A DNA stretch of 64,000 nt from the IMG/VR virus record IMGVR_UViG_3300045988_179014, positions 280,890 through 344,889 of that record; one strand, given 5' to 3'. Position 1 is the first letter of the stretch; each line of letters starts with the position of its first letter. The position numbers were made by a program, and so were the translations under genes. This document shows, piece by piece, positions 21,520-47,183 of the stretch. The notes under the pieces were generated by a model, which worked only from the letters and a program-made list of their open reading frames with translations, did no database searches and was not told where the DNA came from. Origin of the DNA: a virus.

Positions 21520-22287
21520 CTAGCGATGAGCTATTACCAACGTTGTATCATCAACCACTTTCTCTTTATCATCCATATAATCTAGAAATGCTTGCACATC
21601 CATGCCATCATCTTCCAATGCTCTCTTCACAACAGGATTCCAAAACCCGGGGGAGGGAGCATTTTCAGCTATGGACACATTTTCCAACCCATCAGATGAC
21701 AATGAAATGGCAACAATAGGTTCATCACCTGAATAATACAATGGTTGGTAATTGTTGTTTCTACTTGTCAACAATGTGGTCAGATTCGCAAATTCGCCTA
21801 TTTTATCTGGTCGAATCAGAGTATGATGATTGTTTGCATATGACACAACCGCAAATGCGTCCCCAACCACTGCTACTGCCCATGTGTCACCACTGATAGC
21901 GGCAAGAGCAATCGTGCAACCTATTTCTTCATGGTCATCTCGGTCCAACAAGGCATGACGAGCGGCTTCCAAACCTTTTTGTACTGCACCCATTGTATCT
22001 ATGCCGTCATTGAGTGCATCCATGGTTTCTGCTACTGATGTGGATGCAGCGATAGAGGCTCCGATATCTGACAATCGCAAGCTCCCAGCACCATCAGCTA
22101 CCGCAACAACTGTATGTCCATTTTCCTGCAAACTGGCATATGCATCTTGGTTGTTTTTATTGTTTACTTTGTTATGGGGACCTGTTACAGTACCAGCATT
22201 GACAGTTACATTCAAGGAAGTCTCCCCTCTGTCGAGTACATCATGGGAGAAAATATCACTCCGAATATGAAAACCAGTCCAAATCAC
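21520..22287 (-). CDS. PP2C-family Ser/Thr phosphatase
   Basis: It has NQDA, VAVADGAGS, SGD, SSDGL and DDTTLV blocks in PP2C order. The start overlaps the last array gene by 32 nt. Confidence 0.65.
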   Translation of the reverse strand: MIWTGFHIRSDIFSHDVLDRGETSLNVTVNAGTVTGPHNKVNNKNNQDAYASLQENGHTVVAVADGAGSLRLSDIGASIAASTSVAETMDALNDGIDTMGAVQKGLEAARHALLDRDDHEEIGCTIALAAISGDTWAVAVVGDAFAVVSYANNHHTLIRPDKIGEFANLTTLLTSRNNNYQPLYYSGDEPIVAISLSSDGLENVSIAENAPSPGFWNPVVKRALEDDGMDVQAFLDYMDDKEKVVDDTTLVIAHR

Positions 22288-23401
22288 TAAGCTCCAATTT
22301 CAAAGATAATGGTAATTCTGGATTGGTTTCAGATAAGGAAACAATGTCTTCTTGCAGTTTGAGAGACTTGCACAATACTTGAACAACTAATTGTGGCGCT
22401 CCCTGAATATTGTTTTCTTCCAAATCTGACATGTGTTGCAACAAATCCTCAAAATCACTACTACCTAACTTGAGATAAAGGTAAACGAACGGACTAAGAG
22501 GGTTGTATCTACCATAGAAGACGGGAAGAGCCAATTGAGTTCTAGCTGTTATGGTATTGAAGTCATTGGTTTCTTCATATGTCATGGCACCTGATAAATA
22601 CGTCGGGTGAGGTTTTGGTGCACGATACTCATAGAAACCCATCATACAAGCTTTTTCACTGAAGTCGATAAGGAAATTTTGCCGTACTCGCGCTAAATGG
22701 AGTTTGGTATAGCGGTTATCCCATATATACCAGTTTGACTCCATTATTGCTTTGACTTGTTCCAGAGAATATGACAACATTTCTCGTTGTTCTTCAGGAG
22801 ACAAATACAAGAACATGGGAACAATTACACCCAGATAAATTTTTAAATCTGGATATGCTTTTGTCAGTAAGTATAAATTTTCAAGTGAGTACGGATTAGC
22901 TCGGTGTTGACAGGACTGGTTGTTGAAATATGGCATGTACCCGTCAAAATCAATTTGGGCTATGAATGGGTTTCTTAAATTATAGCGACTCTGCTGATGT
23001 CGCAAAAATGACCATTCAGTCAGGTGCTCTGATACATAGAAACCATGTTGCCATAGAATCAAAAGTTGCACCAGATGCCTTAACCGTTCTCGTTGATGTG
23101 GATAGTCGCAAATCAACGCCAAGACTCGCGAATCCTCATCATCAAGACGTAACTGTGGGTCATGAAAATGAGGGTTGAAATCTTCAGTAATTGGGCTCGT
23201 ATCTGGATTTTCTAGCAATGCAAAATCTTCACTCAACGTATTCAATTGTTGAAAGGACAAAGCGTCTTTGCTTATTATCAAACCACGAGTTGACATATCT
23301 GGAGTAAAATCACATACTTGACCATCTAAGGTAACAATGATTTCTTCAGAAGACAACGCCAACAATTGCTCTTGTGTTATAGGTTTGATTGAATGACTCA
23401 T
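22256..23401 (-). CDS. Tandem paralog family member 1 (381 aa), uncharacterised family
   Basis: It shares all family blocks: VTLDGQVCDF, LALICDYP, NPYSLENLYLL, LSPEEQREM, AMTYEETNDF, YLYLKLGSSDFEDLL and ELPLSLKLELSDLDW. An SD GAGGAAAAG precedes the ATG. Confidence 0.8.
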   Translation of the reverse strand: MSHSIKPITQEQLLALSSEEIIVTLDGQVCDFTPDMSTRGLIISKDALSFQQLNTLSEDFALLENPDTSPITEDFNPHFHDPQLRLDDEDSRVLALICDYPHQRERLRHLVQLLILWQHGFYVSEHLTEWSFLRHQQSRYNLRNPFIAQIDFDGYMPYFNNQSCQHRANPYSLENLYLLTKAYPDLKIYLGVIVPMFLYLSPEEQREMLSYSLEQVKAIMESNWYIWDNRYTKLHLARVRQNFLIDFSEKACMMGFYEYRAPKPHPTYLSGAMTYEETNDFNTITARTQLALPVFYGRYNPLSPFVYLYLKLGSSDFEDLLQHMSDLEENNIQGAPQLVVQVLCKSLKLQEDIVSLSETNPELPLSLKLELSDLDWFSYSE

Positions 23402-23466
23402 GTACTTTTCCTCTATTTAGACCAATCTTTACTGGGTTTCTTCCGAATAATGGTTTTACTCGGTTG

Positions 23467-24639
23467 TCATTTCTTGTAGGAGAACCAATCCAAGTCGCTT
23501 AGTTCCAGTTTCAATGACATTGGCAACTCAGGGTTTTCCTGTGATATGTCAACAATCAATTCTTGCAGTTCAAAAGAATCCAACAGTGTACTAATTACAG
23601 ATTCTTTCGTCCCAGAAACCTCATCCTGCTGATTTAACTCATACACGTATCGTATAAAAGCTTCAAAATCAGCACTACCCAATTTAAGGTACAGGTAAAT
23701 GAACAGTTCTGGTACTCCACGTTTGCTGGTGAGATACTCAATTGGAAACATCAACGGGAACCGAGATACAATTGAATTGAAATCATTGGCCTCATCAGGT
23801 GTCATTGAACCAGAGTTTTCGGTTTTGACTGATGATGCCCTATATGAGTCTATGAATGAGAAACAAGCTAAGCTACCAGTAGAAATAGGGTACTTGTTCC
23901 GTATTCGTTCCAGATGCAGTTGAACGTAGCGTTCATCATCCAGGTACCAATACGATGTTGCCAATATTTCCATTTGTGCTGGGGTGTAGGACATGATTTC
24001 TTCTTGCTCTTCTTGTGGTAAACACATGAAAAACTGTTCTAGTGTTTTAGGGTGGAAGAAGACATCAGGATACATGTTTCTCATCCTGTACAAGTTTTCC
24101 AAGAAGTAAGGATTGGCACGATGCTCGCAAGCTAATTCATGGAAACGGGTTATCAAGTTTGCATTAAACATGCGGACCATGGCGAAAGGGGCGAAACCTA
24201 AAACACGACTCTGGTATTTAGCCAACGAATGTTCCGTGACTGCTTCTGATACATAAACACCATGTTGCCAATGAACCATAAGTTGAAGTAAGCGCTCTAA
24301 CCGTTCTATCTCAAGTGGATGGCAACAAACTAACTTCAACACCCGTACCTGTTCATCATCAAGACATAGTTGTGGTGTATGAAAATGCTGAAAACTGTTA
24401 GCGGGCTTTTTCAACTTTGACATACTTTGAACAGTTGTCAGGTCGGAACTCAATTTTACCAGTTGTTGAACTGACAAACCATTATTGGGTATTACCAAAC
24501 CTTGAGTACTCGTGTCAATACTGGAATCAAAATCCAATATTTGGCCTTCTAGCGTAACCATGATGTATTCACTAGTTTCTGATAACCCCAAGGAATTCTG
24601 TTCCTCACAAACGCACATGATAGCATTCTTCCAACACAA
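23467..24639 (-). CDS. Tandem paralog family member 2 (390 aa)
   Basis: It shares the family blocks VTLEGQILDFDS, LVCCHP, NPYFLENLY, LPQEEQEEIMSYT, YLYLKLGSADFEAF and ELPMSLKLELSDLDWFSY. Confidence 0.8.
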   Translation of the reverse strand: MCWKNAIMCVCEEQNSLGLSETSEYIMVTLEGQILDFDSSIDTSTQGLVIPNNGLSVQQLVKLSSDLTTVQSMSKLKKPANSFQHFHTPQLCLDDEQVRVLKLVCCHPLEIERLERLLQLMVHWQHGVYVSEAVTEHSLAKYQSRVLGFAPFAMVRMFNANLITRFHELACEHRANPYFLENLYRMRNMYPDVFFHPKTLEQFFMCLPQEEQEEIMSYTPAQMEILATSYWYLDDERYVQLHLERIRNKYPISTGSLACFSFIDSYRASSVKTENSGSMTPDEANDFNSIVSRFPLMFPIEYLTSKRGVPELFIYLYLKLGSADFEAFIRYVYELNQQDEVSGTKESVISTLLDSFELQELIVDISQENPELPMSLKLELSDLDWFSYKK

Positions 24640-24660
24640 ATCCAGTTTTCAAAACAACCC

Positions 24661-25815
24661 TTAATAGGATTGCACTCGTCTCAAATAGTCACCCAAATCA
24701 AACAACTCCAATTTCAGAGATAGTGGCAGTTCTGCGTCATGGTTGGATATAGCAATAATCTCATCCTGCAATTCGAGAGAATCAGCTATAATATTTAGTG
24801 TATGCCCCTTTCTCTCGAAGAATGTTGCCATATCCTGTTTTTGCATATACTGCAACAAGTCCTCGAAGGCACTACTACCCAACTTGAGGTAAAGATACAT
24901 CAGCAGGTGTACGATATGTTCGTACAAGAAATCATCGTATTCCAAGTTTTCTATGATTCTTTGAAAATCTTTTGCCTCCTCAATGGTCATCGCATAGGAT
25001 GTACGTATTCTTCTATGCGGCATTGAGGTCTCAAACGTGAATAGAATCAGTGGTAGATTCTTTCTCACGCGTTCCAAATGCAATTGCAGATATCGTGTGT
25101 TATCAGCGCACCAATCCGAATCCATCATTGCCCGCACCTGATTCTCGGTATGAGAATGAACTAGCTCTTCCTGCTCCTCTTTTGAAAGATGCATAAACAC
25201 ATCCACCATATTGCGAGGAGGGAATCTGATATCAGGATACTTTTCCACCAATGAATACAAATTCTTCAATGAATGTGGGTCAGGAGAATGACTGTCAATC
25301 CATATATTGAACCAACACAAAAACCCATATCCGCAATCAGCCCTATCTATTTTCACCATGAACGGACTGACTTGATAGGAGTCATAGTGTTCATGAAAAC
25401 TTGCCAACGATTTGTTCAGCATCTTCTTAGACACATGTATGCCATGCTGCCTAAGGATAATAAACTGTTCCAAATGAGGCAATCGTTCTTTTTGAGGGGA
25501 ATGGTCACAAATCAATCTCAGGACTTTTGCATCTTTCCCCTCAAAATGCAACAATGGCGCGTGAAAGTGAAGCGCCTCCAGATACGATGATTCCCTAGCC
25601 CGAGCAATACGCTTTCTTATCCATTTGATGTCTTTGCTCAGTTTTTCTATCCTTTTTGATGAGAACATATTGCATGGAACTACTAATCCCACATCCTTTA
25701 CATGTGCTGACTCGAATTTACAAACATCTCCATCCAAAGTAATGAGGACTTTTTGAGAATTGGACTTTTCCATCATGACAGCACTCCTCTTGGGCGTCCT
25801 TTCTATGCGTTCCAA
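24661..25815 (-). CDS. Tandem paralog family member 3 (384 aa)
   Basis: It shares the family blocks ITLDGDVCKFES, LICDHSPQKER, LSKEEQEELVHSHT, YLYLKLGSSAFEDLLQY and ELPLSLKLELFDLGDY. Confidence 0.8.
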   Translation of the reverse strand: MERIERTPKRSAVMMEKSNSQKVLITLDGDVCKFESAHVKDVGLVVPCNMFSSKRIEKLSKDIKWIRKRIARARESSYLEALHFHAPLLHFEGKDAKVLRLICDHSPQKERLPHLEQFIILRQHGIHVSKKMLNKSLASFHEHYDSYQVSPFMVKIDRADCGYGFLCWFNIWIDSHSPDPHSLKNLYSLVEKYPDIRFPPRNMVDVFMHLSKEEQEELVHSHTENQVRAMMDSDWCADNTRYLQLHLERVRKNLPLILFTFETSMPHRRIRTSYAMTIEEAKDFQRIIENLEYDDFLYEHIVHLLMYLYLKLGSSAFEDLLQYMQKQDMATFFERKGHTLNIIADSLELQDEIIAISNHDAELPLSLKLELFDLGDYLRRVQSY

Positions 25816-26125
25816 TACAAATTTATTGGGGTTCTATACATAGAGAATACCAGCCAAGACCATTAAGTTCAAGCTTCAGTAGCATAAACACTGTAGAGCC
25901 AACCTTGATGCTGTACCAATCTTGTCCTGTAATTTTGGTTTTTTACAGGACACGCAGAAACGCTAATTTCGGATGTCCAAATTTTAGCACTTTGAGTGAA
26001 ATTCGATGATGAGCATTTTTCTCCATACGCTCTCGAACTGATTTTCCTGTTTTTAAGGACTTTAATCAGTTTTGTCTTATTATCCTTGACGGGAAAACCA
26101 TGCAGAAACACTAATCCTGAAACTT

Positions 26126-27379
26126 CTATAGATAGTAATTTTGAATCAAAATCCTATCCTGTCTGCTATATCGACCACTCATTAACCAGTTGTCATATGC
26201 TTTTTCTCCATATGCTTGAACGAGTCTTTCATTCTCAGTTTTCACATATGAATACCAATCCAAATCACTAAGTTCGAGTTTCAGCGACATGGGCAATGCG
26301 GAGTCAAGTTTTGATGCTGCAATAATTGCTTCCTGCAATTCAACCGAATGATACAAAATATGAACCATAGGGCTCTTGTCGTGTCTATCATTTCTATCAT
26401 TGTTTTGCATATATCTCAACAATTCCTCAAAATCGTTACCCCCGAGTCTGAGGTATAGATAAACAAGCAATCTTATGAATACTACTTGAGAAGCTACTTC
26501 ATAACAATGGGGAACAACAAATCCGAGTCGAGCTATAATGTCTTCAAACTCATTCATTTCGTCAAGATTTAGTGCACATATGCGCATTGGTTCATCACCA
26601 CAACATACTGGTACTTTAAGCGTCATGTCATAAGCATCAATGCCTTTCCTTATACGCGAGAAATGAATCTTTCGATAACGCGCATCAGAGAAATACCAAT
26701 CCCCTTGAAAAACAGTTGTTCTAAGACCTAAAGAACCCCCAAATACTGGGTACACTTCTTGATTCTTTTGAAACAAACAGAGAAGCGCTGGTAGTACCCA
26801 AATACCATGACCAAACATGCCTCTTCTGCGCTTCTTGGCAAACTCTTCCAGTAGCTCCAACACATGAGCATTAACAGGATGGTCACACACCCAGTCATTG
26901 AAGTCTGGTTTTTTAACCCACTCATCATAACTGATTTCAAACATTACGAATGGAATATTTTCTTTAATAACATTATCCAGTACTGAGAGTAGAACTGAAT
27001 CGCGCCAGGTTGACAATGACTGCTTCGCCAGACGTTCAGAAACATAAATATTATGTTGTCGAAACACTATGAATTGTTTCAAATGGGATAATCGTGCTTG
27101 TGAATCTGGCCAATCCAGAATCGCTCTCAGCACTTTTAAGTCTTCCCCTTCAAGACTTAACTGCGGTTTGTGAAAATGGGATTCGTCTTTAGAAGCAAAA
27201 GAATTTCCCAATTCGGCCATATCAGCAGCTAACACCTTCAGTTGTTTATTTGATAACCCTCTACGGGGTATCAACAACCCATATGTTTCATTTGCTGATT
27301 GCGCCCATCTATGTATTTTGCCATCTAATGAAACTAAGATGGGAGAAACAAACTTTCCTAAAAGGTGCTTAAACAACAC
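26126..27379 (-). CDS. Tandem paralog family member 4 (417 aa) with C-terminal extension
   Basis: It has the family blocks plus a roughly 35-aa extra tail after LSDLDWYSYV. The 310-bp spacer downstream contains degenerate copies of this tail. Confidence 0.75.
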   Translation of the reverse strand: MLFKHLLGKFVSPILVSLDGKIHRWAQSANETYGLLIPRRGLSNKQLKVLAADMAELGNSFASKDESHFHKPQLSLEGEDLKVLRAILDWPDSQARLSHLKQFIVFRQHNIYVSERLAKQSLSTWRDSVLLSVLDNVIKENIPFVMFEISYDEWVKKPDFNDWVCDHPVNAHVLELLEEFAKKRRRGMFGHGIWVLPALLCLFQKNQEVYPVFGGSLGLRTTVFQGDWYFSDARYRKIHFSRIRKGIDAYDMTLKVPVCCGDEPMRICALNLDEMNEFEDIIARLGFVVPHCYEVASQVVFIRLLVYLYLRLGGNDFEELLRYMQNNDRNDRHDKSPMVHILYHSVELQEAIIAASKLDSALPMSLKLELSDLDWYSYVKTENERLVQAYGEKAYDNWLMSGRYSRQDRILIQNYYL

Positions 27380-27455
27380 AAAGCTCCCCTATTTTATAGA
27401 CTAAATTGATAATCACAATTCTAGTCTCAGGGGAGCCACGTGTCAATTCTGGCTA

Positions 27456-28511
27456 TCAAAACACCAGCTGTACCAACTCTTCATTGGGGTCTTCCTCAGC
27501 CAACTGCTGAAGAAGCTTTTCAAACTTTTTGCTACCGAGTCTGAGGTAGCAATACAAAAACCTTGTAACAAAAACCTTACTGAGATAATAATATTTATTT
27601 GGAATTCTGAAACTGGTGCAGTCCAGAATTTCCTGAAGTTCAGCTGCCTCCTCTGCGGTCAGGACATGATTTGGCAGAAGAGTACAATCATCTTCCTTCT
27701 TGTACCATGCCCTTAGAACATTTTTCTTGATGGGAAGATTCTCTTCCTGCACTCGTTTTCTGTGAAGCTCCCGGTACTCAGGATTCGCGAAGTCCCAATC
27801 AGCTTCCAGAGTACGCTTGATATGGGATGGCTCCCAGAGACGAAGCTGCTGCTGTTGCTCATCTGTCAGCCCCACGAACCATTTAAAAGTAGTGAATTGA
27901 ATCTCTTGTACTTCTGGGGTTTTTTCAAGAAGAGCCCATAGATTCTCTAGGACATGTGGATTCACCTCATGAGAATCCAGGCAAAGTGACGTTATAGACC
28001 GTTTCGGAGGATTTTTAACATATGGCGCAAATGGTACGTTTTGACTCATTGTTTTCATATCCCAATACCTTGACATAGCGGCCAAGGATATTTTCGTCAG
28101 TTCGGTTGGCACATACACCCCGTTCTGCCGAAAAATCAAGAAGTCAATCAGGTGCGCTACGCGTACATATTTATGCGGTTGGTCACAAATCAGTTTCAAT
28201 GTTTCCAGGTCATCATCCTGGATATGTAGAGGATTGTTGAAATGACATCTTGATTCCAAAGGTTCCAAGGAATTTCTGTGATGGTTGCCCAAATCAGTTC
28301 TAAGAGTATTCAATTGGTCCTCAGTCAGAGCACCTTTGGACAACACAATACCAACCACTTTGGTCTTTTTACCAAGGTGAACAGTGCCATCTAGGCCAAC
28401 CGTAATGAAGTGAGTACCCCCACAAGCCGTAATGAACTTCTCAAACTGTCGTACAATGGCTTCCATTTCCGCGTTTCCCTTTCTGCGATTCGTATGAGAA
28501 CAGACTATCAC
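27456..28511 (-). CDS. Tandem paralog family member 5 (351 aa), divergent, lacks C-terminal LPLSL motif
   Basis: It has LKLICDQPHK, NPHVLENLWALL and FLYCYLRLGSKKFEKLLQQL. It ends early at EELVQLVF. It shares a 4-nt ATGA overlap with member 6. Confidence 0.7.
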   Translation of the reverse strand: MIVCSHTNRRKGNAEMEAIVRQFEKFITACGGTHFITVGLDGTVHLGKKTKVVGIVLSKGALTEDQLNTLRTDLGNHHRNSLEPLESRCHFNNPLHIQDDDLETLKLICDQPHKYVRVAHLIDFLIFRQNGVYVPTELTKISLAAMSRYWDMKTMSQNVPFAPYVKNPPKRSITSLCLDSHEVNPHVLENLWALLEKTPEVQEIQFTTFKWFVGLTDEQQQQLRLWEPSHIKRTLEADWDFANPEYRELHRKRVQEENLPIKKNVLRAWYKKEDDCTLLPNHVLTAEEAAELQEILDCTSFRIPNKYYYLSKVFVTRFLYCYLRLGSKKFEKLLQQLAEEDPNEELVQLVF

Positions 28512-29674
28512 ATGTGTGAAGACCTGTCAAAACCGCTGAGTTGGAATCTCAAGGAGAAAGGTAGTGCGGAGTCCAGCTTTGAGACTGCAATAATCGTTTT
28601 CTGTGCTTCAACAGCCCCATACAGTGCATTTGACAGAAGCTTCCAGTCTTCCTCGTTTTGTTGGCAATCACGTAAATATTGCAGAAACTCTTCAAAATCT
28701 TTACTACCAATTTTGAGGTACAGATAGATGAAAGATTTGAAGCTTCGATATCGCGAAAATGAATTGTCATATAGAGGGCCAAGTTCTGAACGTTCTATAA
28801 TTGCTTGAAAATCATTCGCTTCATTCTGTGTCATGGCACAAACAGACCATGTATCATCATATCGCCCTGATTTCACATTGAAGGAAAACTTTACAATTGG
28901 AAGGTTTTGTTTCAATCGGTCTAGGTGAAATGTCTTGTATTGTTCATCCCATATGTACCAATCTGATGCCATTAGTGCTCTAACATATTCTGAAGTGCAA
29001 GAACACAATGCTTTTTGTTCTTCTGATGACAAACACATAAAAACTCGCAACATGGGTTCATAACTAATTTTGACATCAGGGTGGCTTTTGGTCAACAAAT
29101 ACAGGTTTTCCAATGTATATGGATTACATGGGTGTTCGCATATCCAATTGTTGAAGTCTTGTGACAATTCCAGGCCATAACGAAAACTGTTGGTAATTTG
29201 AACCATGAATGGAACAGCGTTATATGTGCCATTGTTCCAATATATGTGCAAATCGGATAATGATTGTTTAGCAACCCATTCGGGGATATGAACACCATGT
29301 TGCAGAAGGGTCAGAAATTGACTCAGGTGTGCTTCCCTCTCCCCTTGTAATGGATGGTCACAAATCATTTTCAGTACGTCCACATTTTCACTGTCAAGAT
29401 GTAATTGAGATGTATGAAAATGCAATAATGACATCAACATGCTAGAACCAAATCCTGTTTCCAGCCGAGCAATGTCCTGTCTCAATGTTGTTAACTGCTG
29501 TGGGGACAAAACACCTTTGGGGAACACTACGCCTTGGACTGAAGACACCTTTGAATCCAAATCATACACTTGACCGTTTAGTGTGACTACGATTTTCTCA
29601 GTAGATTCACTGGTGTTTTCAACAGATTTGAAATACTCTTGCTGTGGTTTACTGCGTGAATGATGACTATGCAT
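28508..29674 (-). CDS. Tandem paralog family member 6 (388 aa)
   Basis: It has the family blocks VTLNGQVYDLDS, MICDHPLQGER, NPYTLENLYLL and YLYLKIGSKDFEEFLQYL. Its C-terminal variant is LPFSLRFQLSGFDRS. Confidence 0.8.
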   Translation of the reverse strand: MHSHHSRSKPQQEYFKSVENTSESTEKIVVTLNGQVYDLDSKVSSVQGVVFPKGVLSPQQLTTLRQDIARLETGFGSSMLMSLLHFHTSQLHLDSENVDVLKMICDHPLQGEREAHLSQFLTLLQHGVHIPEWVAKQSLSDLHIYWNNGTYNAVPFMVQITNSFRYGLELSQDFNNWICEHPCNPYTLENLYLLTKSHPDVKISYEPMLRVFMCLSSEEQKALCSCTSEYVRALMASDWYIWDEQYKTFHLDRLKQNLPIVKFSFNVKSGRYDDTWSVCAMTQNEANDFQAIIERSELGPLYDNSFSRYRSFKSFIYLYLKIGSKDFEEFLQYLRDCQQNEEDWKLLSNALYGAVEAQKTIIAVSKLDSALPFSLRFQLSGFDRSSHM

Positions 29675-29714
29675 TTTCCAGTTTCATTGATGTGAGTGTG
29701 TTTTCAGATTTCAC

Positions 29715-30863: not shown

Positions 30864-30907
30864 AATATTTGTGCATCCTGATTGATGTAATTATTTAACA
30901 GTTAAAC

Positions 30908-32065: not shown

Positions 32066-32099
32066 CTAGGCCATTTACAGGATTGAAAAACGACATTAC

Positions 32100-33194: not shown

Positions 33195-33233
33195 AACACT
33201 ACTCCTTTACCCTATTGACTCAATGACATCAGC

Positions 33234-34385
33234 TCAAAACTCATACTGTAGAGCACAAGATTGCTCCATGTACGGGTTCCAGTCAAAACCGCTGAATGTC
33301 AACCTCAAAGACAATGGTAGCTCACAATGCTGCTTTGATGCAACAATGATTCGCTCTTGTGCTTCATAATAGTCATACAACACTTTGACAAGAGACCTTT
33401 TTCGCCTGTTGTTGCTTTCACAATCTTTCAAGTAATACAGTAGTTCTTCAAAATTTGTGCTACCCAGTTCAAGATATAGATAGACGAACAACCCAAAAAC
33501 TGATGATGTTGACATTGAATAATAACTATTAGGAACAACAAATTGGGTTCTGTCCAAAATTGTTTGGAAATTGTTTGCTTCATCTAACATCATTGCATGA
33601 GCCAGTTGTTGTATACTGGATATTTTCCCTTTGGATTCAAATTGCATTACGAATTGGTGCTCAACAAGTGGAAGGTTCTTCTTCACTCGTTCCAAATGAA
33701 GTGAAGATAAATTCGCATGGTGGATATACCAGTCACAATCCATTATGGCCTTGATTTGATGAGGTGTATAACCAATCATCTCTTTCTGTTCTTCATGTGA
33801 CAAATACATGAAGACATCACAAACAGCCATATGGCTAATTTCCACATTGGGGTGTCTTTTAGCTAGTAGGTGCAAGTTCTCCAATATATGAGGAACTACG
33901 GGGTATTCGCATATGTAATAATTAAAATCTGGCAGCAGTCCATATGGTAAATCGCTATCAGTTTTAATCATAAATGCGGCTTGGCGTGTAGCTAGTAATG
34001 ATTGTTGTGTCACCCATTCAGACACATATATACCATGTTGCCTGAAATACAGGAAATGCCTCAAATGCCGCAATCGTTTATCCTTGTAAGAGTGGTCACA
34101 AATCAATCTCAATACTTTGACGTCTTCTTCGGTGTCAAGACGTAGATGCGGTGTATGAAAATGTTCATCCTCGTACAACAAATCCTGTAACGCAGAAACA
34201 TCTTCTTTCAGCGTGGTCAATTGCTGTTCAGATAAAGCTCCATGTGGTATGACCAAACCTGGAAGTATGAAACTTGAATCGAAATCGTATATTTCAGCAT
34301 TCAAGGCCACAATGATTCGTTTTGGGCTACTGGTCGAACGAGATGGTTGTGATGCGAAAGGATGTATTAGATGTTTATTATACAT
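33234..34385 (-). CDS. Tandem paralog family member 10 (383 aa)
   Basis: It has the family blocks LICDHSYKDKRLRHL, ICEYPVVPHILENLHLL, YLYLELGSTNFEELLYYL and ELPLSLRLTFSGFDWN. Confidence 0.8.
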   Translation of the reverse strand: MYNKHLIHPFASQPSRSTSSPKRIIVALNAEIYDFDSSFILPGLVIPHGALSEQQLTTLKEDVSALQDLLYEDEHFHTPHLRLDTEEDVKVLRLICDHSYKDKRLRHLRHFLYFRQHGIYVSEWVTQQSLLATRQAAFMIKTDSDLPYGLLPDFNYYICEYPVVPHILENLHLLAKRHPNVEISHMAVCDVFMYLSHEEQKEMIGYTPHQIKAIMDCDWYIHHANLSSLHLERVKKNLPLVEHQFVMQFESKGKISSIQQLAHAMMLDEANNFQTILDRTQFVVPNSYYSMSTSSVFGLFVYLYLELGSTNFEELLYYLKDCESNNRRKRSLVKVLYDYYEAQERIIVASKQHCELPLSLRLTFSGFDWNPYMEQSCALQYEF

Positions 34386-34439
34386 GATGCTGTATTCTCA
34401 CTGCCGTTAAAAGATTCTTGAAATTAAAGCTGGCATTAT

Positions 34440-35534
34440 TCAACTTGGACATAATTCTTCATCCAACACGCTGAGTGCCAAACTCAGAGACAGAGGTAGT
34501 TCATAAGCCTGTTTCGAAAATGCAATAATTGACTCTTGCAACTCACGTGAATCACATAATGTTTTTACAGCAGACTTGTTTTCCTTAGCATCATTTTTGC
34601 AATCTCTCAAGTAATAAAGTAGTTCTTCGAAATTTGTACTACCAAGTTGAAAGTACAAATAAATGAATGAACTAATTCGGTCTGATGACATGTAGATATC
34701 CTCTGGGACAACAAATTCAGTTCGGTCTAGGATTGCTTGGAAGTTTTCTGCCTCGTCTAGTGTCATCGCACGAATTGGTATTGCGGTATTTTGGATTCTT
34801 CCGTTAAAATTATTTTTCACAATAAATGGGTACCTTACAATGGGAATGTTCTTCTTGACTCTCTCCAAGTGAAGAGATTGCAGACGTGTACGATGTGCAT
34901 ACCACCCATACTCCATTACTGCTTTAATTTGAGCTGCTGTGTAAGAACTGACCATTTCTTCTTGTTCTTCTTGAGACAAATAAACGAAGACCTGTAGGAT
35001 TCCGCCATAATCCAGGTCCATTTCTGGATATTCCGGATATTTGGAAACAAGGGCGTGCAGATTCATCAATGAATATGGATTAATTTGGCACCGACATATT
35101 GTGTAATTGAAGTCTTCCAAGAACGATTCCATCAAACTCTGGTTTCCAATTTTAGGCATAAATGGAGTTCGTTGTGTGGTAGCGAAGAGCAATGATTGCA
35201 GTGTCACCCATGCAGGAAGGTACACACCATGCTGTCGCAAATACAAAAACTGGTTTAAGTAATCCAATCGTTTTCTTGAATCACAATGGTCACAAATCAA
35301 CCTTAGAGACTTGATGTCTTCGTCATTATCAAGACGCAGCTGAGGAATATGACAGTGTCTATCATATAATAACCGTAATTCTGCCATAGAGTCTTTCAAA
35401 ACGGCAAGTTGTGATTCCGATAAAGCCCCATATGGTACTACTACCCCACAAATAGTTGAATCCTCGGACTCTAAACATCGAATTTCGTTATACAATGTGA
35501 CAAGGATTAGAGGAGGATTGGACAAATCCATCAT
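34440..35534 (-). CDS. Tandem paralog family member 11 (364 aa)
   Basis: It has the family blocks LICDHCDSRKR, NPYSLMNLHAL, LSQEEQEEMVSSYT and YELPLSLSLALSVLD. Confidence 0.8.
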   Translation of the reverse strand: MMDLSNPPLILVTLYNEIRCLESEDSTICGVVVPYGALSESQLAVLKDSMAELRLLYDRHCHIPQLRLDNDEDIKSLRLICDHCDSRKRLDYLNQFLYLRQHGVYLPAWVTLQSLLFATTQRTPFMPKIGNQSLMESFLEDFNYTICRCQINPYSLMNLHALVSKYPEYPEMDLDYGGILQVFVYLSQEEQEEMVSSYTAAQIKAVMEYGWYAHRTRLQSLHLERVKKNIPIVRYPFIVKNNFNGRIQNTAIPIRAMTLDEAENFQAILDRTEFVVPEDIYMSSDRISSFIYLYFQLGSTNFEELLYYLRDCKNDAKENKSAVKTLCDSRELQESIIAFSKQAYELPLSLSLALSVLDEELCPS

Positions 35535-35592
35535 AATGGTCTTTCGTCTTCATCAAGTTGATAGCATAATAATAGTACAGAGATAGAACTGA

Positions 35593-36717
35593 TTATTCCA
35601 CAGAATCCCAGTCCAAATCATAGAGTACCAATCTCAAAGACAGTGGTAACTCATCTTCTTGGTTTGGGGCAGGAACAATCAATTCTTGCAGTTGAGGGGA
35701 ATCATATAGTGTTTTCACAATAGACTCTTCCTTCTCGCTGTTATACTGGCAGTCTTGTAAATACTGTAGCAGTTCTTCAAAATCCGTGCTACCCAGTGTG
35801 AGGTAGAAGTAAACGAACAGCCCAAAAAGTTCATCAGAGAACATGTAAGAAATATTTGAGAAGATATATTTGGTTCGATTCAGGATTGCCTGAAAATCTT
35901 CTGACTCCTCCAATGTCATGGCACGAGCTGATTTTGATACATCAGATACTCCCCATATTGATGTGAATCGAAGAATAAAAGGATAGTTAACAATGGGAAG
36001 ATTCCGCTTCACCCGGTCAAAATGAAGTGACGACAGAAGCGCATGATGTATGTACCAATCACAATCCGTTATAGCTCTAACTTGGTCTGAAGTGTAAGAA
36101 TGCATGATTCTTTCTTGTTCACCCTCAGATAGTGTTGCAAACACCTTTAAAGCGCTAATGTAATTAATCTTTATGTTGGGGCGATTCTTGGCTAACCAGT
36201 GTATATTCTCCAATATGTTGGGACTAACAGAAGACTTGCACACTATATGATTAAAATTCATGCCAAACGAGTGTATTGAGCCAACATGACTGATTCCAAC
36301 CATAAACAGCTCCCAATCCACAGCCAACAAAGACTCTTGCGTGAGCTGCTCTGAGACACGGATTCCATGCTGTCTTAAATATAGAAACTGCTTTAGATGT
36401 TCCACCCTGTTTCGTGAACACTTATGGTCACAAATCAATCCCAGCACTTTTATGTCTTCTTCACCATCAAAACGCAGTTGAGGAATATGACAATGTTGGT
36501 TGTGTAAGGGACGTGATAACCAGACATCCTTTTTCAACACGGTTAATTGCCGTTTGGACAAAGCATTCTTCGGTATGACCAAACCGCGAATGACAGAGAC
36601 CTCAGAATCGAAGTCTACCACATCACCGTCCAATGTGACCATTATTGAACCAGAATTCAATATTTTCTTCATAATGCATATTCCCTTGTTTTCATTGATT
36701 GGATAGTTCAAGTTCAT
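35593..36717 (-). CDS. Tandem paralog family member 12 (374 aa)
   Basis: It has the family blocks VTLDGDVVDFDS, LICDHKCSRNR, LSEGEQERIMHSYT, YFYLTLGSTDFEELLQYL and ELPLSLRLVLYDLDW. Confidence 0.8.
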   Translation of the reverse strand: MNLNYPINENKGICIMKKILNSGSIMVTLDGDVVDFDSEVSVIRGLVIPKNALSKRQLTVLKKDVWLSRPLHNQHCHIPQLRFDGEEDIKVLGLICDHKCSRNRVEHLKQFLYLRQHGIRVSEQLTQESLLAVDWELFMVGISHVGSIHSFGMNFNHIVCKSSVSPNILENIHWLAKNRPNIKINYISALKVFATLSEGEQERIMHSYTSDQVRAITDCDWYIHHALLSSLHFDRVKRNLPIVNYPFILRFTSIWGVSDVSKSARAMTLEESEDFQAILNRTKYIFSNISYMFSDELFGLFVYFYLTLGSTDFEELLQYLQDCQYNSEKEESIVKTLYDSPQLQELIVPAPNQEDELPLSLRLVLYDLDWDSVE

Positions 36718-36733
36718 ACTATAGTACGAAAAC

Positions 36734-37832
36734 TATCCTATATATGAATCCCAGTCCAAATCATAGAGTTCAAGTTTCAACGACAATGGTAATTGAGGGT
36801 TCTCCTCTGAAATGGAAACAATCATTTCTTGTAGTTCGAAAGAATTGCACAATAAGCTCACAATAGCTCCTTGTTGATTACGAGAATAGTTTTGCAGGTA
36901 TTGCAGCAATTCTTCAAAATCTGTACTACCAAGTCTGAGATACCAATAAACCAGTGAACAAAAAGGTTATTGGATGTCCGATACATTTCATCTGTAACCA
37001 CGAACTTGGTTCTCTTCATAATCGCACAATAATCATGAATCTCGTTTGATGTCATGGCGCGAACCGACTTGTATACGTTAAATGCTCTTGTTGTAGATGT
37101 GAGCCTTATAACAAAAGTGTATACAACAATAGGAAGATTCTTCTTAACTCGCTCTAAATGAAGAGAACGAAGGGATTCATGACCTCTGTACCAATCACAG
37201 TTTAAGACGGCTTTAATTTGGTTTGATGTATAGGAGTACACCACTTCTTCTTGTTCTTCTTGTGACATCCATATGAAGATTTTCAGAATACCATCATAGT
37301 TGTTCTTTATGTTGAAATGTTTCTTACCTAGTAGATAGATGTTTGTCCAAGTGTGAGGATTTATGGAATGCACACAAATGTAGTAATTGAAACTCCCCAG
37401 AAAAGAACTCATTGATTCGTTGCCCCCAATTTTAAACATGAACGGGGTCTGGTGAGAATTTGACAATGACTCTCGTGCCAACCATTCTGGTACATGAATA
37501 CCATGTTGCCTAAAAATCAGAAATTGCTCTAAATGAGACACACGTTTTTGAGACTGAACATGGTCACAAATCAACTTCAAAACCTTTATCTCTTCTTCCG
37601 ATTCAAGGCATAGTTGAGATTTGCGTTGATGATGCATTTCATATTGAGTTCTTCTTAATTGGGCAACGTTGTCTCTCAGCGTTGACAACTGTTCTTCTGA
37701 CAAAACGTCTTTTGGTAGAACTATGCCACAGGGTATAACCTCAGAATCAAAATCCAAAACTTCACCGTCTAATGTGACAATAATTTGGTTTGAACAGGAA
37801 GACTTCAAGTTAGCATTAAGGTGATTACTCAT
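36734..37832 (-). pseudogene. Tandem paralog family member 13, disrupted by a frameshift at an A5/T5 run
   Basis: The N-terminal 290 aa are in the listed ORF 36858..37832. The conserved C-terminus (VYWYLRLGSTDFEELLQYL...LPLSLKLELYDLDWDSYIG) continues in another frame down to the stop at 36734-36736. The frame switch lies at the caaaaag run near 36950-36960. Confidence 0.7.
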
Positions 37833-38997
37833 AACTATTGGCCTTTAACACAGTTGAAATTCGACGCCTTCGGGAGAAAGAAGATGAGTCCCATTCCAGC
37901 CCACTGAGAACCAACCTCAAGGACAGTGGCAATTCACGATTCTGCTTTGAAACATCAATAATCGACTTTTTCATTTCTGAAGAATTGCACAACAGCGTTT
38001 TTATGAGAGTCTCCTTTTCGGAATGCTCGCAATTTTGTATATACTGAACCAATTCCTCAAAATCCGTACTGCCCAATTTCAGATAATAGTAAAACAACAC
38101 ACCAAATATTTCTTCAGGCGTTGTATCAATACTCTCCGGAACGGCAAATTCAGTTCGGTTTAGAATGGATTGGAAGTCATCTGCTTCATCCAACGTCATA
38201 GCCATAATAGAGATTTTAGCGTCGTACACCTTTCTTTTGGAGGAGTACCTTATAATAAATGAGGAACGAACAACTGGGGTATTTGCTCTGACTCGGTCCA
38301 GATGTAGATTTTTGAGAAGGGCGTCATCCAAGTACCATGAACTCCCCATTATTGCCATAATTTGGTCGAATGTATAGTAATTGATTATGGTCTCTTGTTC
38401 ATCTTGCGTCAAACAAAGAAACATTCGTAAAATAGCATCATAGTTTATCACCATATTCGGATATTTCTGTACCAACAAATATACGTTTTCCATAGAATAT
38501 GGATTTATTGACATATGGCATACCCAATCCTCAAAATTCTCTATAGGACTAGAACCTGTCGTACTGATTTACACTATGAATGGAACAATGGTGAATGCTC
38601 CTTGGTCCCAATAATAGTGAAAATCTGACAATGATTGTTTAGTCATTGTCTCAGATAAATATATGCCGTGTTGACGAAGATAAACAAAATATTCCAAATG
38701 AATAGCACACTCTACTAGGAATGGGTGGTCGCAAATCAGGCCTAAGACCTTTACGTCCTCATCGCTAAGTTTTAAATGACGAGTATGTATATGAATTGAC
38801 CGATGAAATGTACCAGGTAATAGTTTTAGGCATCTTGTCAACATAGACAGTTGAGTTTTGGAAAGAGCATTGTTTGGCAGTACTAGACCAGGAATCATCA
38901 GTTCCGAGTCAAAATCTAGGACCTCCCCATCTAACGTGACAATAATTTGACCCGAGCTAGAACTTTTTAACGCTATACTACTTGAATCATGACACAT
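37825..38997 (-). pseudogene. Tandem paralog family member 14, interrupted by an in-frame TAA
   Basis: ORFs 38569..38997 (N-terminal part, ...VPFIV*) and 37825..38514 (C-terminal part starting MSINPYSMENVYLLVQ) are in the same frame. They are separated by a TAA at 38566-38568. The neighbouring copy reads VPFIVDVSKNGS...DWVCDKAINPYSVENLYLL across that point. Confidence 0.7.
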
Positions 38998-39028
38998 AGT
39001 TACCTCTTAATGCAGTTCACAATTGTAT

Positions 39029-40180
39029 TCATAATGTTTGACAAGAAGGATACGAGTTCCAATCCAATCCATTGAGAGCAAATCTCAAGGATAATGGCAA
39101 TTCACGATTTTGATTCGCAGCCAACAAGATAGATTCTTGCAACTCAGAGGAATTACGTAATAGAGCTTTTATGAAGCCTTTTGCAGAATCATTTTGTGCA
39201 TACTGTATTAATTCTTTAAAATCTGTAGCACCCAATTTCAAGTAATAGTAAAATAATACATTGAAAATTCTCGGAGATGATACAAGAATGTTCTCTGGAA
39301 TGACGAACTGGGTTTGGTCCATAATATTTTGAAACACAGTGGCCTCATCCAACGTCATAGCCCGCAGGAAGCGCTTAGTTTTATGCATTTCGCCTTTTGA
39401 TGTATGTCTCATAATAAATGGAAAACGAACAATAGGTGTATTTGCTTTGACACGTTCCATATGAAAGGTCTTAATAAGTGCATCATCTAAATACCATGTA
39501 CTGCTCATTAGTGCCATAATTTGGTCGAGTGTATAATCATTGATGATGTTTTCTTGTTCCTCTCGTGACAAACACAGGAACATTTTTAAAACTACATCAT
39601 AATTTATTTTAATATTTGAAGACTTCTGTACCAGCAAATACAGATTTTCCACCGAGTACGGGTTTATTGCTTTATCACATACCCAATCTTTAAAGCTCCC
39701 TATTGACAAGGAGCCGTTCTTGCTAACATCAACTATGAATGGAACAGCACTAAAGAGCCCTTGTTCCCAATAATGGGGGAAATCGGACAAGGACCGCTTT
39801 GTCACCTCTTTTGACAGGTAAATATCATGCTGGCGGAAATAAACAAAATATTCCAAGTGAATCGCAGAATCCCATTTTGACGGATGTTCGCAAATCAATT
39901 TTAGAACCTCCACATCCTCATCATTGCAGTGTAAAGGATTAGTATGAAGATGCTCTGATTCGCGAAATGTCCATGGTAAAGACTTAAAGCATTTTGTTAA
40001 CATAAGCAATTGATTCTCAGAGAAAGCGTCACTGGGCAGGACCAAGCCTTTCTTCCCATCCAATGCAGGAGAAAACGAACTAACATCCCCATCTAATGAA
40101 ACAAAAATTCTAGACTGGTGACCTTGTTCAGTAGCCTGATGCATGCCTCTCCTCGTGCTATGTTGACATTTTGTTCTCAA
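39029..40180 (-). CDS. Tandem paralog family member 15 (383 aa), first full-length copy of the array
   Basis: It has the family blocks VSLDGDVSSFSP, LICEHPSKWD, NPYSVENLYLLVQ and ELPLSLRFALNGLDWN. A 300-bp AT-rich region upstream is the probable array promoter. Confidence 0.8.
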   Translation of the reverse strand: MRTKCQHSTRRGMHQATEQGHQSRIFVSLDGDVSSFSPALDGKKGLVLPSDAFSENQLLMLTKCFKSLPWTFRESEHLHTNPLHCNDEDVEVLKLICEHPSKWDSAIHLEYFVYFRQHDIYLSKEVTKRSLSDFPHYWEQGLFSAVPFIVDVSKNGSLSIGSFKDWVCDKAINPYSVENLYLLVQKSSNIKINYDVVLKMFLCLSREEQENIINDYTLDQIMALMSSTWYLDDALIKTFHMERVKANTPIVRFPFIMRHTSKGEMHKTKRFLRAMTLDEATVFQNIMDQTQFVIPENILVSSPRIFNVLFYYYLKLGATDFKELIQYAQNDSAKGFIKALLRNSSELQESILLAANQNRELPLSLRFALNGLDWNSYPSCQTL

Positions 40181-40481
40181 TTATAGCACTTGAGTATCAA
40201 ATACACCAGATATCCGACATACGAGCAACATTAAACAACAAGTGGAAGACCGTACAACAATACACCCATGGAGAATCCAAACACACTAACTCTATTATAA
40301 GAGCCATAGATAGAGTGAACAGTGCAGTAATCTTCAACTACTTAAGAGATTAGGTTCATTCTGTTTGATGCAGTTAAGTTAATTATAATTGTACAAACTA
40401 GTAGCCTAAGCAATACAATTAATTACAGGACCAATATGACATTGACGATTCTAGTGACACAATGGTTCACCAATTCAAAAG

Positions 40482-41186
40482 CTACTCAACAATGTCGTCT
40501 ATGAGATGCATGTTCAATGAGAACGCCAAGCTCCATGGAAGCCCTTCAGATGCTTGTTCAATCGCTTTGACCCGCTTCAATCCCTCTCCAGGTGCGAACA
40601 TCTGTTTTACAATGAGACCAGGATAGGTTTCTCCAGCATTTTCCACAGCAAGCATACCTTGGAAAAAGTCTTCCAACTGGTCGTATTCTATTCCAATATG
40701 CAACAAAACCAGAATGATTTCCTGAACATCAAACTGATTCGCCACTGGACAACAAGGCTTGTATCTTTGTGTCACATTGTGGATTATGTCTCGTTCCGTC
40801 TCTGTGAACACAGAACGCAACTGAACCTTTGTGGACGGCCTGAACGGTATTCTGAAGTACACTATAGTAGATTCATGATAAGGCATTAACCCTTGATTAA
40901 TTACTCTGTCAAAATGAATCTCAAACGCTTCTTGATTATTTTTCCACCAAGCGTTGTCCAATAATGCCATCAATTGTGTTGTTGACAATTCAGAACCCCA
41001 TTGTCTGTAATCAACCCAAGGAGAATCGCTCAACCGAAACGCCATTTCATGCATTCGATATAAGTTAATGGGCCTATCACACCGAGTCTTCAACCAATCA
41101 AAAGCCGCTTCTGCATCCAATAATTGTTGTAAATCGTTTACTCTACCTGAAACTTGGTTGTAATCAAAAGAATAATTCGTCAACAT
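40482..41186 (-). CDS. Short divergent family member (234 aa) corresponding to the C-terminal two-thirds of the paralog family
   Basis: It aligns block-wise from the NPY..ENLY region onward: RPINLYRMHEMA, LSTTQLMALLDNAWW, HFDRV and VLLHIGIEYDQLEDFF. Its C-terminal variant is EGLPWSLAFSLNMHLIDD. Confidence 0.6.
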   Translation of the reverse strand: MLTNYSFDYNQVSGRVNDLQQLLDAEAAFDWLKTRCDRPINLYRMHEMAFRLSDSPWVDYRQWGSELSTTQLMALLDNAWWKNNQEAFEIHFDRVINQGLMPYHESTIVYFRIPFRPSTKVQLRSVFTETERDIIHNVTQRYKPCCPVANQFDVQEIILVLLHIGIEYDQLEDFFQGMLAVENAGETYPGLIVKQMFAPGEGLKRVKAIEQASEGLPWSLAFSLNMHLIDDIVE

Positions 41187-41881: not shown

Positions 41882-42289
41882 TCAAGCAGCACGTTTTTCC
41901 CATGTCCACTTTTGGTCCCGTTCCAACCAACACTCATGTAACGCACGACCAATCACCCTATGCAAAACTGCCTCAACATCAGAACGTGAACTTCGCCAAT
42001 CAGACTCACTAATATGAAGCAATTGTATTCCTCGGTCAAAACAGCGATAGGTTTTCTTCCTATGGTATTCTTCAGCAGTCAATCCAGTATTCCATTTGAC
42101 CACTTTGTCAGAATGCCAATAATCACCATTGACTTCTATCCCGACACTCAAATTCGGCAAATAAATGTCAATCTCCATGGGAAAAATTGCGACATGCTCA
42201 TTTATTACAATGTCTAAACTCGTTGGAACAATAGTACGAACATATTGCAGAATTTCTTCTTCCAAACAACTTTTCACATCATGATTCAT
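41882..42289 (-). CDS. DUF559/Vsr-like (PD-(D/E)xK) endonuclease-like protein
   Basis: It has the pattern IDIYLPNLSVGIEVNGDYWHS...ISESDWRS typical of Vsr/DUF559 nuclease-fold domains. Its start overlaps the stop of the upstream zinc-ribbon gene by 4 nt. Confidence 0.5.
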   Translation of the reverse strand: MNHDVKSCLEEEILQYVRTIVPTSLDIVINEHVAIFPMEIDIYLPNLSVGIEVNGDYWHSDKVVKWNTGLTAEEYHRKKTYRCFDRGIQLLHISESDWRSSRSDVEAVLHRVIGRALHECWLERDQKWTWEKRAA

Positions 42290-47063: not shown

Positions 47064-47183
47064 TAACTTAAAACTAGTTGGATGTTTCAAACATTCTCTA
47101 CTGTATTACCCTTATCAACTAAACCAAAATAGGGCAGAATTGCAAGTGTTAGATTTGCAATTCTGCCCACAATAATTGGTGCG

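Follow-up and report, generated by a model that had tools for sequence, protein, structure and literature searches.

Why would a phage carry some fifteen diverged copies of one gene in the midst of a signalling operon, and what might the encoded proteins do? This question is raised by a 64,000-nucleotide stretch of the IMG/VR virus record IMGVR_UViG_3300045988_179014 (positions 280,890 to 344,889 of that record; hereafter the window, in whose coordinates all positions are given), which on its minus strand, at 22256-41186, holds a head-to-tail array of paralogous genes. The array had been pointed out by a model that saw only the letters of the DNA and a list of its open reading frames (ORFs), an account that we call the sequence-only reading. 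What is new here is that the array encodes a protein family without sequence or fold relative, that it belongs to a 21-kb, endonuclease-associated insertion in a TerY-P-like phage operon, and that it turns over between co-circulating gut strains.

An array of diverged paralogues without known relatives

Our copy count rests on an ORF scan of the window, on profile searches and on a whole-length alignment of 14 long ORFs (alignment A1). The scan yielded 17 co-oriented ORFs in an uninterrupted run, which make up 16 loci: 15 full-length slots (13 intact, one frameshifted and one split by a nonsense codon) and one short upstream relative (Table 1). The sequence-only reading had likewise described sixteen co-oriented minus-strand genes with a fixed order of blocks, and these blocks are visible in alignment A1. 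The intact copies encode proteins of 351-417 amino acids (aa), and a family hidden Markov model (HMM) matches each full copy at E 1e-113 to 1e-166. Pairwise identity among the copies is 25-58% for protein, where 35-60% had been estimated, and at most 70% for DNA, which bears out the view of a diversified family rather than a recent amplification.

Both damaged slots carry a single small lesion. The frameshifted copy has lost one nucleotide (TTTTTGG to TTTTTG) and is intact (366 aa) in the other strains L001, L003 and L085; the split copy has one in-frame stop at codon 143, a position that encodes Glu in other strains, and is intact (390 aa) in L003 and L085. The copy at 27456-28511 is naturally short. 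It ends without the tail that closes the other copies, so that the C-terminal block is not present in all full copies as had been supposed, and it is short in the other examined strains too (336-362 aa, depending on the called start codon). The ORF at 40482-41186, earlier taken for a short divergent copy, is indeed related, but only to the C-terminal half of the family (hhalign probability 80%, E 1.3e-5). Its score of 26.2 bits was reached by 0/2000 shuffles, the best of which gave 7.4, and the ORF is 98.7% conserved relative to L003.

The genes are closely packed. Every copy has its own start codon, with sequences resembling Shine-Dalgarno (SD) sites at several. Most spacers measure 21-76 bp, much as had been stated (20-76 bp), but three gaps are longer (140, 301 and 310 bp). 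An overlap reported as ATGA reads GTGA, at 28508-28511, under the longest-ORF rule; a gene caller instead starts that gene at the downstream ATG at 28466. The last array copy overlaps the adjoining PP2C phosphatase gene by 32 nucleotides (nt) and has the same orientation as the PP2C, M23 and kinase genes. We found nothing terminator-like in the inter-copy spacers, and the overall count of intrinsic terminators equals the shuffle expectation. Given the co-orientation, the PP2C overlap and the spacers without a terminator-like site, a single transcript that runs across the array into PP2C, M23 and the kinase is plausible, which stops short of the one transcription unit that had been called probable. 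A scan of the array for sigma-70 promoters also gave counts at the shuffle expectation, and neither a motif common to the intergenic regions nor a conserved spacer sequence was found. The array's only near-consensus sigma-70-like site (TTGACA, 17 nt, TAGAAT; 11/12 matches) lies at 27418-27446 on the minus strand, in the 76-bp spacer upstream of the copy at 26126-27379, and may be an internal promoter.

Alignment A1 displays the blocks of the family in order: an N-terminal (I/V)xVTLDGxVxDFDS...GLVxPxxALSxxQL; a second block, HFHxPQLxLDDEDxKVLRLICDHP....RxxHLxQFLxFRQHGIYVSEWVT; a looser third, xC(D/E)(H/Y)PxNP(H/Y)xLENLxLL; a fourth, LSxEEQEE...YTxxQIKAxMxxDWY...LHLERVKxNLP; a fifth, AMTxxEAxDFQxI; a sixth, YLYLxLGSxDFEELLQYL; and a last block, ELPLSLKLELSDLDW. 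The conserved scaffold comprises the LRLICDHP...FRQHGIYVSEWVT helices, the YLYLKLGSxDFEELL segment and the L-P-x-S-L C-terminal tail, the core of which does not vary among the 12 tailed copies. Variation is concentrated at the N-terminus, at residues 61-75, 131-155 and 181-190, in a hairpin (241-260) and at residues 321-330.

It had been proposed that invariant Cys and His residues of two blocks form a catalytic dyad or a metal site. Across the 14 aligned copies, however, the LICDHP block has C in 13/14, D in 12/14 and H in 11/14, and the second Cys/His block has C in 10/14 and H in 7/14. The residues that are invariant in alignment A1 lie scattered (L59, L92, L108, S129, Q200, W219, R233, E269, I276 and G308), with Ser52 nearly invariant beside the invariant Ser129, and we found no conserved catalytic constellation in that alignment. 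Because the claim of invariant Cys and His fails, and the invariant residues are few and scattered, the family is unlikely to be enzymatic. Two further ideas found no support: that the two 'xCDHP' units arose by internal duplication (hhalign probability 7.8% over 15 residues), and a winged helix-turn-helix (wHTH) or AsnC-like nature of the LDxEDxKVLRLI...GIYVS segment, suggested by eye, for which no HTH profile or fold matched.

The isoelectric point is 4.8-6.5 in 13/14 aligned copies and 8.0 in the frameshift-truncated ORF, the grand average of hydropathy is negative in all, and inspection of the array proteins revealed no signal peptide or membrane segment. With the 14 paralogues as its sole alignment, AlphaFold2 returned a confident, compact model (predicted local distance difference test score, pLDDT, 84.3; predicted TM-score, pTM, 0.79), in which three short N-terminal strands and a long helix lead into a middle part made of helices; a long beta-hairpin (241-265) comes next, and the C-terminal part is again helical. 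We infer that the array encodes soluble, compact alpha/beta proteins of about 380 aa that range from acidic to neutral.

The sequence-only reading could not place the family, and neither could our searches. Profile searches with individual members and with alignment A1 gave best Pfam matches of E 0.03-0.24, short of the cut-offs, and no match in NCBIfam, PADLOC, PHROGs or PDB sequences; the AlphaFold2 model had no significant fold match in PDB or BFVD. A word-indexed search of 5.8 billion clusters returned 38 family clusters, all at E < 1e-67, unnamed and none of them from NCBI, and an exhaustive HMMER pass over 1.84 billion representatives returned 12 matches, all at E < 1e-90, with no weak tail and from this lineage only. 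A tblastn search of all INPHARED phages gave no match. Peptide-pattern scans of IMG/VR and of the GTDB representatives, seeded with a single copy and able to see close relatives only, found nothing, and among 185,579 species-representative genomes there was no close relative of the array family or of a TrxB-like gene of the same window. The survey of other genomes that had been proposed thus finds the family limited to this lineage, with a copy number that varies between strains.

One other ORF of the window may carry the same C-terminal module. The C-terminus of a 442-aa ORFan, …KDFEALL…KLPLSLLMHMEGLD (its end reads ...KDFEALLKDL...KLPLSLLMHMEGLDVS), is collinear with the family's DFEELL...ELPLSLKLELSDLD. 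The resemblance is suggestive: hhalign gives E 0.004 at a probability of 8%, and the module HMM gives 11.5 bits, where the best of 2000 shuffles reached 9.8, for an ORF that was picked post hoc as the best non-family match of a six-frame scan. If true, the module would be common to different bodies, which would argue for a docking or targeting function.

An insertion in a vWA-PP2C-kinase operon

The sequence-only reading had set the array in a context of vWA, phosphatase and kinase genes, and the Pfam matches of the flanking genes agree. It had missed that the replicon is that of a huge phage, not a cellular one, and that the array is an insertion which splits this triad. The vWA, PP2C and Ser/Thr kinase genes are contiguous in the related phages L090 and L093 and in MT836238, a human-faecal phage fragment; here they are split by about 21 kb that hold a split homing endonuclease and the array. 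These three examined relatives lack not only the array and the 234-aa copy but also the endonuclease and the M23 gene. The synteny downstream (HAD-like, methyltransferase, M50, NrdI flavodoxin) is the same in L090 and L093, at 43-52% identity. From this comparison, the array is an insertion particular to this lineage, which interrupts a conserved and otherwise unbroken triad. The comparison also shows that the family arose or was acquired once the lineage had diverged from its huge-phage relatives, with which the window shares 43-52% identity in backbone proteins.

The insertion has company. At the vWA/array junction, the 340-aa endonuclease ORF contains three DUF4379 treble-clef zinc fingers (Pfam E 1.7e-27); the two endonuclease ORFs match consecutive positions of phrog_559 (146-305 and 307-416), and the nuclease ORF matches phrog_3339 at E 1.6e-25. 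A small opposite-strand ORF lies between the endonuclease and the 234-aa relative. The M23 gene, between PP2C and the kinase, is a second lineage-specific insertion, and both it and the split endonuclease are absent from L090, L091 and L093. The triad is also present in L091 (a 697,643-bp contig, JGI 3300031088; L091/L092 6996-11917), where the vWA gene is inverted; between it and PP2C, at the junction that holds the array in the window, stands an unrelated 393-aa gene. Because of this gene, the vWA/PP2C junction seems to be a recurrent insertion site. As remote members of the array family, ORFs without assigned function near the triad in relatives, including the 393-aa gene, were rejected (probabilities of at most 1.1%). 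The L091 contig is itself possibly a huge-phage genome near 700 kb.

Since the array is an insertion beside a homing endonuclease, its signalling context may owe as much to an insertion hotspot as to a functional link; functional coupling between array and triad is possible, and is not implied by location.

The flanking triad is a known module. TerY-P triads combine a TerY-like vWA protein, a PP2C phosphatase and a Ser/Thr kinase with a zinc ribbon, as outlined in PMC11090510, which summarises Anantharaman et al. 2012 and Gao et al. 2020. The genes that flank the array resemble this module in domain composition and order, in a CX5H...CXXC knuckle after the kinase domain, and in being contiguous in related phages. 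They differ in that they are phage-encoded, conserved across a huge-phage clade and here split by 21 kb, and in that the kinase seemingly ends in transmembrane helices: from the translation, by eye, its kinase domain is followed by a CX5H-X10-CXXC knuckle, an S/P-rich linker and hydrophobic C-terminal segments that resemble three to four such helices. No zinc-ribbon or OB profile matched the kinase. No PADLOC model, of TerY-P type or other, matched the vWA protein, PP2C matched a generic model only (E 5.5e-4), and the kinase best matched mad6 and PD-T4-6. The kinase has more than 400 homologues, many of them full-length, in metagenomes that include contigs of 570-830 kb. The array family is not a component of any described TerY-P system, and it is absent from the examined relatives that bear the triad.

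Table 1. Features of the window, with the evidence on which each assignment rests
Feature	Position	Strand	Basis and remarks
Full-length array slots, orphan family	22256..40180	-	ORFs, alignment A1, family HMM, identity matrix
Intact copies 1-5	22256-23401, 23467-24639, 24661-25815, 26126-27379, 27456-28511	-	ORF scan
Intact copies 6-10	28508-29674, 29715-30863, 30908-32065, 32100-33194, 33234-34385	-	ORF scan
Intact copies 11-13	34440-35534, 35593-36717, 39029-40180	-	ORF scan
Naturally short copy	27456..28511	-	Without C-terminal LPLSL tail (ELPLSL); HMM positions 338-385 absent
Frameshifted copy	36736..37832	-	ORF 36858-37832 and C-terminal block in other frame at 36736-36966 (six-frame HMM scan, strain alignment)
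Nonsense-split copy	37825..38997	-	ORFs 38569-38997 and 37825-38514, strain alignment
Short relative, 234 aa	40482..41186	-	Kin of the family's C-terminal half only; ends ...GLPWSLAFSLN
Split homing endonuclease	41882..43308	-	340-aa ORF and 135-aa nuclease-domain ORF with 4-nt overlap; at vWA/array junction
vWA (TerY-like), triad gene 1	43394..44092	-	Pfam VWA E 5.6e-7; phrog_28389; 45-49% identical to L090/L091/L093
PP2C_2 phosphatase, triad gene 2	21520..22287	-	Pfam E 1.4e-28; 46-48% identical to relatives
M23 metallo-endopeptidase	20526..21443	-	Pfam E 1.4e-25; PHROG endolysin and metallo-endopeptidase families
Ser/Thr kinase, triad gene 3, 621 aa	18604..20469	-	Pfam Pkinase E 4.2e-8; phrog_37888
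M50 (site-2 protease / RseP-like) intramembrane protease with PDZ	13541-14779	-	44-46% identity and same synteny in L090, L093
NrdI-type flavodoxin	12941-13429	-	PHROGs match
442-aa lineage-specific ORFan	10649..11977	-	Last ~100 aa resemble array C-terminal module (tentative)
TrxB-like pyridine-nucleotide disulphide oxidoreductase	9687-10652	-	~40% identity at best to GTDB species representatives
T5orf172 + ResIII helicase, 1062 aa	3890-7078	-	phrog_16 DNA helicase
rIIA homologue	61172-63334	+	phrog_612 E 2.7e-62; at most 34% identical to any cultured phage

Gene content, an IMG/VR relative and the size of the carrier contigs together identify the window as part of a huge phage of the human gut, uncultured and about 340 kb long. 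The metagenome 3300045988 is described as a co-assembly of human faecal samples (bioRxiv 10.1101/2023.07.31.550844), and contigs of 337-347 kb that carry the family in several assemblies suggest a near-complete replicon. Phage genes in the window include the rIIA homologue and a phrog_2319 protein (E 1.7e-51), and the vWA and kinase genes match the phage families phrog_28389 (E 1.9e-40) and phrog_37888 (E 1.5e-33). A 189-kb IMG/VR viral contig from metagenome 3300045988 has an rIIA gene 95% identical to that of the window and stops just short of the start of the array. No capsid or terminase gene was found within the 64-kb window, and no scanned ORF of the window matched a structural gene; the neighbours are rIIA, a helicase, and genes for nucleotide metabolism and signalling enzymes. 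The TrxB-like and NrdI-type flavodoxin genes probably make up an accessory module of the phage for nucleotide reduction. The TrxB-like gene did not serve to place the host, its best matches among species representatives (about 40% identity) being mostly metagenome-assembled genomes of Clostridia. Searches of the window for Rfam families and tRNAs gave no match. A 2.4-kb region at 47064-49426 has no ORF of at least 90 aa and no Rfam match even at E 0.1, and contains a 50-nt direct repeat at 48532 and 48737 (78% identity, 205-nt spacing). The M50/PDZ protease at 13541-14779 is an unusual gene for a phage to encode.

Recurrence, constraint and turnover between strains

Could the array be an artefact? 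The sequence-only reading had itself named the case that would make it uninteresting, namely that the copies are assembly artefacts of one gene. We found the array in at least six independent metagenome assemblies, a recurrence that excludes such an origin. In ENA ERZ27262748, a 337.4-kb contig matches 21 kb of the window at 100% identity; Logan SRR13363919 and ENA ERZ26867809 hold collinear arrays at 92-94.5% DNA identity; and ERZ28664413, ERZ27262876 and ERZ1757551 carry the array as well. Moreover, an assembler cannot create or collapse copies whose DNA is at most 70% identical.

Comparison of the strains points to constraint on every copy. Between the window and L003, the ratio of nonsynonymous to synonymous substitution rates (dN/dS) is 0.15-0.38 in every array copy, with values of 0.20 for PP2C and 0.13 for M23 in the flanks. 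Pooled over 35 orthologous pairs from four strains, dN/dS is 0.17-0.34 across all structural regions: the core stands at 0.17-0.19, and the variable N-terminus, the first strands, the hairpin and residues 321-350 stand just above it. These values also bear on the idea that the array is a neutral, decaying 'gene accordion' without function, which would suit the two pseudogene copies of the window and the further broken copies of other strains. A dN/dS of 0.15-0.38 speaks of constraint rather than decay, the paralogues are too diverged to be assembly duplicates, and a single coherent AlphaFold fold emerges from paralogue covariation alone. Taken together, the identity matrix, the strain comparison and dN/dS effectively refute both the artefact and the neutral explanation, to which we attach next to no weight.

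At the same time, the set of copies changes from strain to strain. In L001 and L003 the slots at 32100-33194 and 30908-32065 are replaced by one non-orthologous copy, 52-58% identical; L085 and L086 have other slots broken (into 136+198 aa and 79+295 aa) together with a 15-nt tandem duplication; and L087 has fewer slots. Within the window, the identity matrix pairs copy 34440 with copy 32100 (49%) and copy 33234 with copy 30908 (57%), which suggests a two-gene segmental duplication, and the copies in the upstream half of the array seem to be younger than those in the downstream half. Neighbouring genes differ 40-fold in synonymous divergence (dS 0.014-0.54), M23 having a dS of 0.15 and PP2C of 0.017, and this range indicates that the strains are mosaics produced by recombination. 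As read from these comparisons, the family expanded to about 15 slots by tandem and segmental duplication, and it has since followed birth-and-death evolution, with copy loss, cassette replacement, point-mutation pseudogenes and mosaicism; the copies are dispensable one by one and maintained as a set.

Such turnover might also be expected if only one or a few copies were expressed and the others served as donor cassettes for gene conversion, in the manner of antigenic variation. Cassette replacement and the 40-fold dS range do point to frequent recombination, and copy number does vary between strains. However, each copy begins with a start codon of its own and is subject to purifying selection over its full length, which makes behaviour as a contingency locus or a store of silent cassettes unlikely, and we rate it very low. 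Several copies also have SD-like sequences, the paralogues, no more than 70% identical in DNA, are poor substrates for gene conversion, the lesions are random point mutations and not tract slippage, and the mosaicism affects the flanks as well, as the contrasting dS values of M23 and PP2C attest.

What the array proteins may do

How, then, might the family act? We tentatively favour, at less than even odds, a role in host interaction: the copies would form an accessory set of soluble proteins that bind or act as adaptors rather than as enzymes, and that are expressed together with the kinase module. The copies would be made inside the infected cell alongside the kinase/phosphatase operon; the conserved scaffold and LPLSL tail would dock one common partner, and the variable elements would give each copy a distinct target, such as variants of a host factor or host defence proteins. 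The array would then serve as an accessory host-range or counter-defence repertoire. Consistent with this proposal are the orphan status of the family, its arrival by insertion, purifying selection, turnover, the non-enzymatic, soluble character of the proteins and a non-structural, early-type neighbourhood.

Several observations weigh against it. The family has no homologue of known function and no structural analogue, and there is no direct functional evidence. We found no positive selection in any region: dN/dS stays below 0.4 even in the variable hairpin, and no arms race is visible at orthologous copies. That copies are individually dispensable, as the pseudogenes indicate, fits any accessory role. 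The junction looks like a general insertion hotspot, with the endonuclease and M23 nearby and the unrelated gene in L091, and the co-location with the kinase may be incidental. Finally, the large tandem paralogue families of another giant phage proved to be head proteins (PMC5694885), which speaks for packaging in the virion.

A bolder form of the same proposal, which we regard as improbable, is that a new fold has been expanded into about 15 specificity variants, each of which neutralises or redirects a different host factor or defence system. Delivery or regulation would then proceed through the shared C-terminal LPLSL docking tail, in concert with the membrane-anchored, eukaryote-like kinase/phosphatase switch that the phage itself encodes. 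The array would be a viral, modular 'adaptor repertoire' without cellular counterpart, possibly of de novo origin in the phage.

Large DNA viruses offer parallels for a host-interaction repertoire. Tandem host-range or counter-defence families include the ankyrin, BTB and F-box arrays of poxviruses and giant viruses and the hyperplastic internal-protein (ip) locus of T4. The array resembles such families in being tandem, diversified, lineage-specific, individually dispensable and subject to birth-and-death turnover; it differs in that those consist of recognisable repeat or adaptor folds or of small, basic, packaged proteins, whereas the fold of the array proteins is unrecognised. With the immunity-gene arrays of bacterial polymorphic toxins it shares head-to-tail diverged paralogues and an unrecognised fold. 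Unlike those, it has no adjacent toxin gene or domain, it lies in a huge-phage context of lytic type, and its proteins, at about 380 aa, far exceed typical immunity proteins in size; the array proteins matched no immunity family in PADLOC or Pfam.

The chief rival is that the paralogues are packaged in the virion, as head-internal or ejected proteins of low to moderate abundance in the manner of SPN3US family B or the inner-body families of phiKZ, the C-terminal tail being an incorporation signal and the neighbouring M23 protein a virion-associated wall hydrolase. Giant phages with large tandem families of paralogues are known already, and among the closest known systems are SPN3US family B (gp83, gp138-154, gp161 and gp237) and related virion families such as phiKZ gp93/94/95/162/163 (pfam12699). 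The 20 members of SPN3US family B, with gp138-154 in tandem, are all head proteins of unknown function (PMC5694885), and their layout is nearly alike (275-498 aa, co-oriented, small spacers). Like our array, the SPN3US and phiKZ families comprise 15-20 genes for proteins of 300-500 aa, most of the genes standing in tandem, in one orientation and with tight spacing, and identity within SPN3US family B is similarly low, at 13-41% to the first sequence of its alignment (alignment A2). Also in keeping with packaging, M23 domains match PHROG tape-measure and minor-head families besides endolysins, and a tail module that may be common to two otherwise different ORFs would suit a targeting signal. 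Against it, homology to SPN3US family B was rejected (hhalign of alignment A1 against A2: probability 0.05%, E 0.85), no similarity in sequence, profile or BFVD fold was found, and the family has no PHROG match. The 64-kb neighbourhood is non-structural, with the array inside a kinase/phosphatase signalling operon; the array proteins are acidic, not basic; and by eye their variable N-termini have no recurrent protease-type motif, no motif search having been run. A further difference is that the SPN3US proteins have been shown to be in the head. On balance we think packaging unlikely, though we take it more seriously than any other rival.

A different possibility ties the array to its operon: the vWA-PP2C-kinase switch would have the paralogues as its own, alternative substrates or adaptors. 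The acidic LPLSL...D-L-D tail would recruit them, for instance to the metal-ion site of the vWA protein, and phosphorylation would turn them on or off, each copy giving a different output. The position of the array within the triad, its shared orientation and 32-nt overlap with PP2C, and the invariant or nearly invariant Ser129 and Ser52 are in line with this, and cassettes embedded between TerY-like vWA genes and the rest of an operon have a precedent in CoCoNuT type III-A (PMC11090510). Yet the triad is contiguous without such a partner in the related phages and in several hundred homologous contexts, and since it is conserved and contiguous without any such partner it does not need the array family; the junction, moreover, is an insertion hotspot marked by a homing endonuclease. 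We hold a dedicated switch output to be doubtful. The probability left over from the readings named here goes to something else.

The array matters for several reasons. Human-gut huge phages are almost entirely uncharacterised, and a 19-kb block, about 5-6% of the genome, given over to one orphan family under purifying selection is a heavy investment, because most phage genomes are without paralogues. The intact-triad relatives, the 15-copy insert and the strains with losses form a comparative series that amounts to a natural experiment on the birth and turnover of a phage multigene family, and the same series bears on whether phage kinase/phosphatase modules recruit accessory partners. Since about 15 billion proteins include no relative of the family and no known fold matches it, the family is a candidate for a new fold and for a new way in which phage and host interact, and its 13 intact, diverged and well-modelled proteins can be expressed directly for binding-partner screens.

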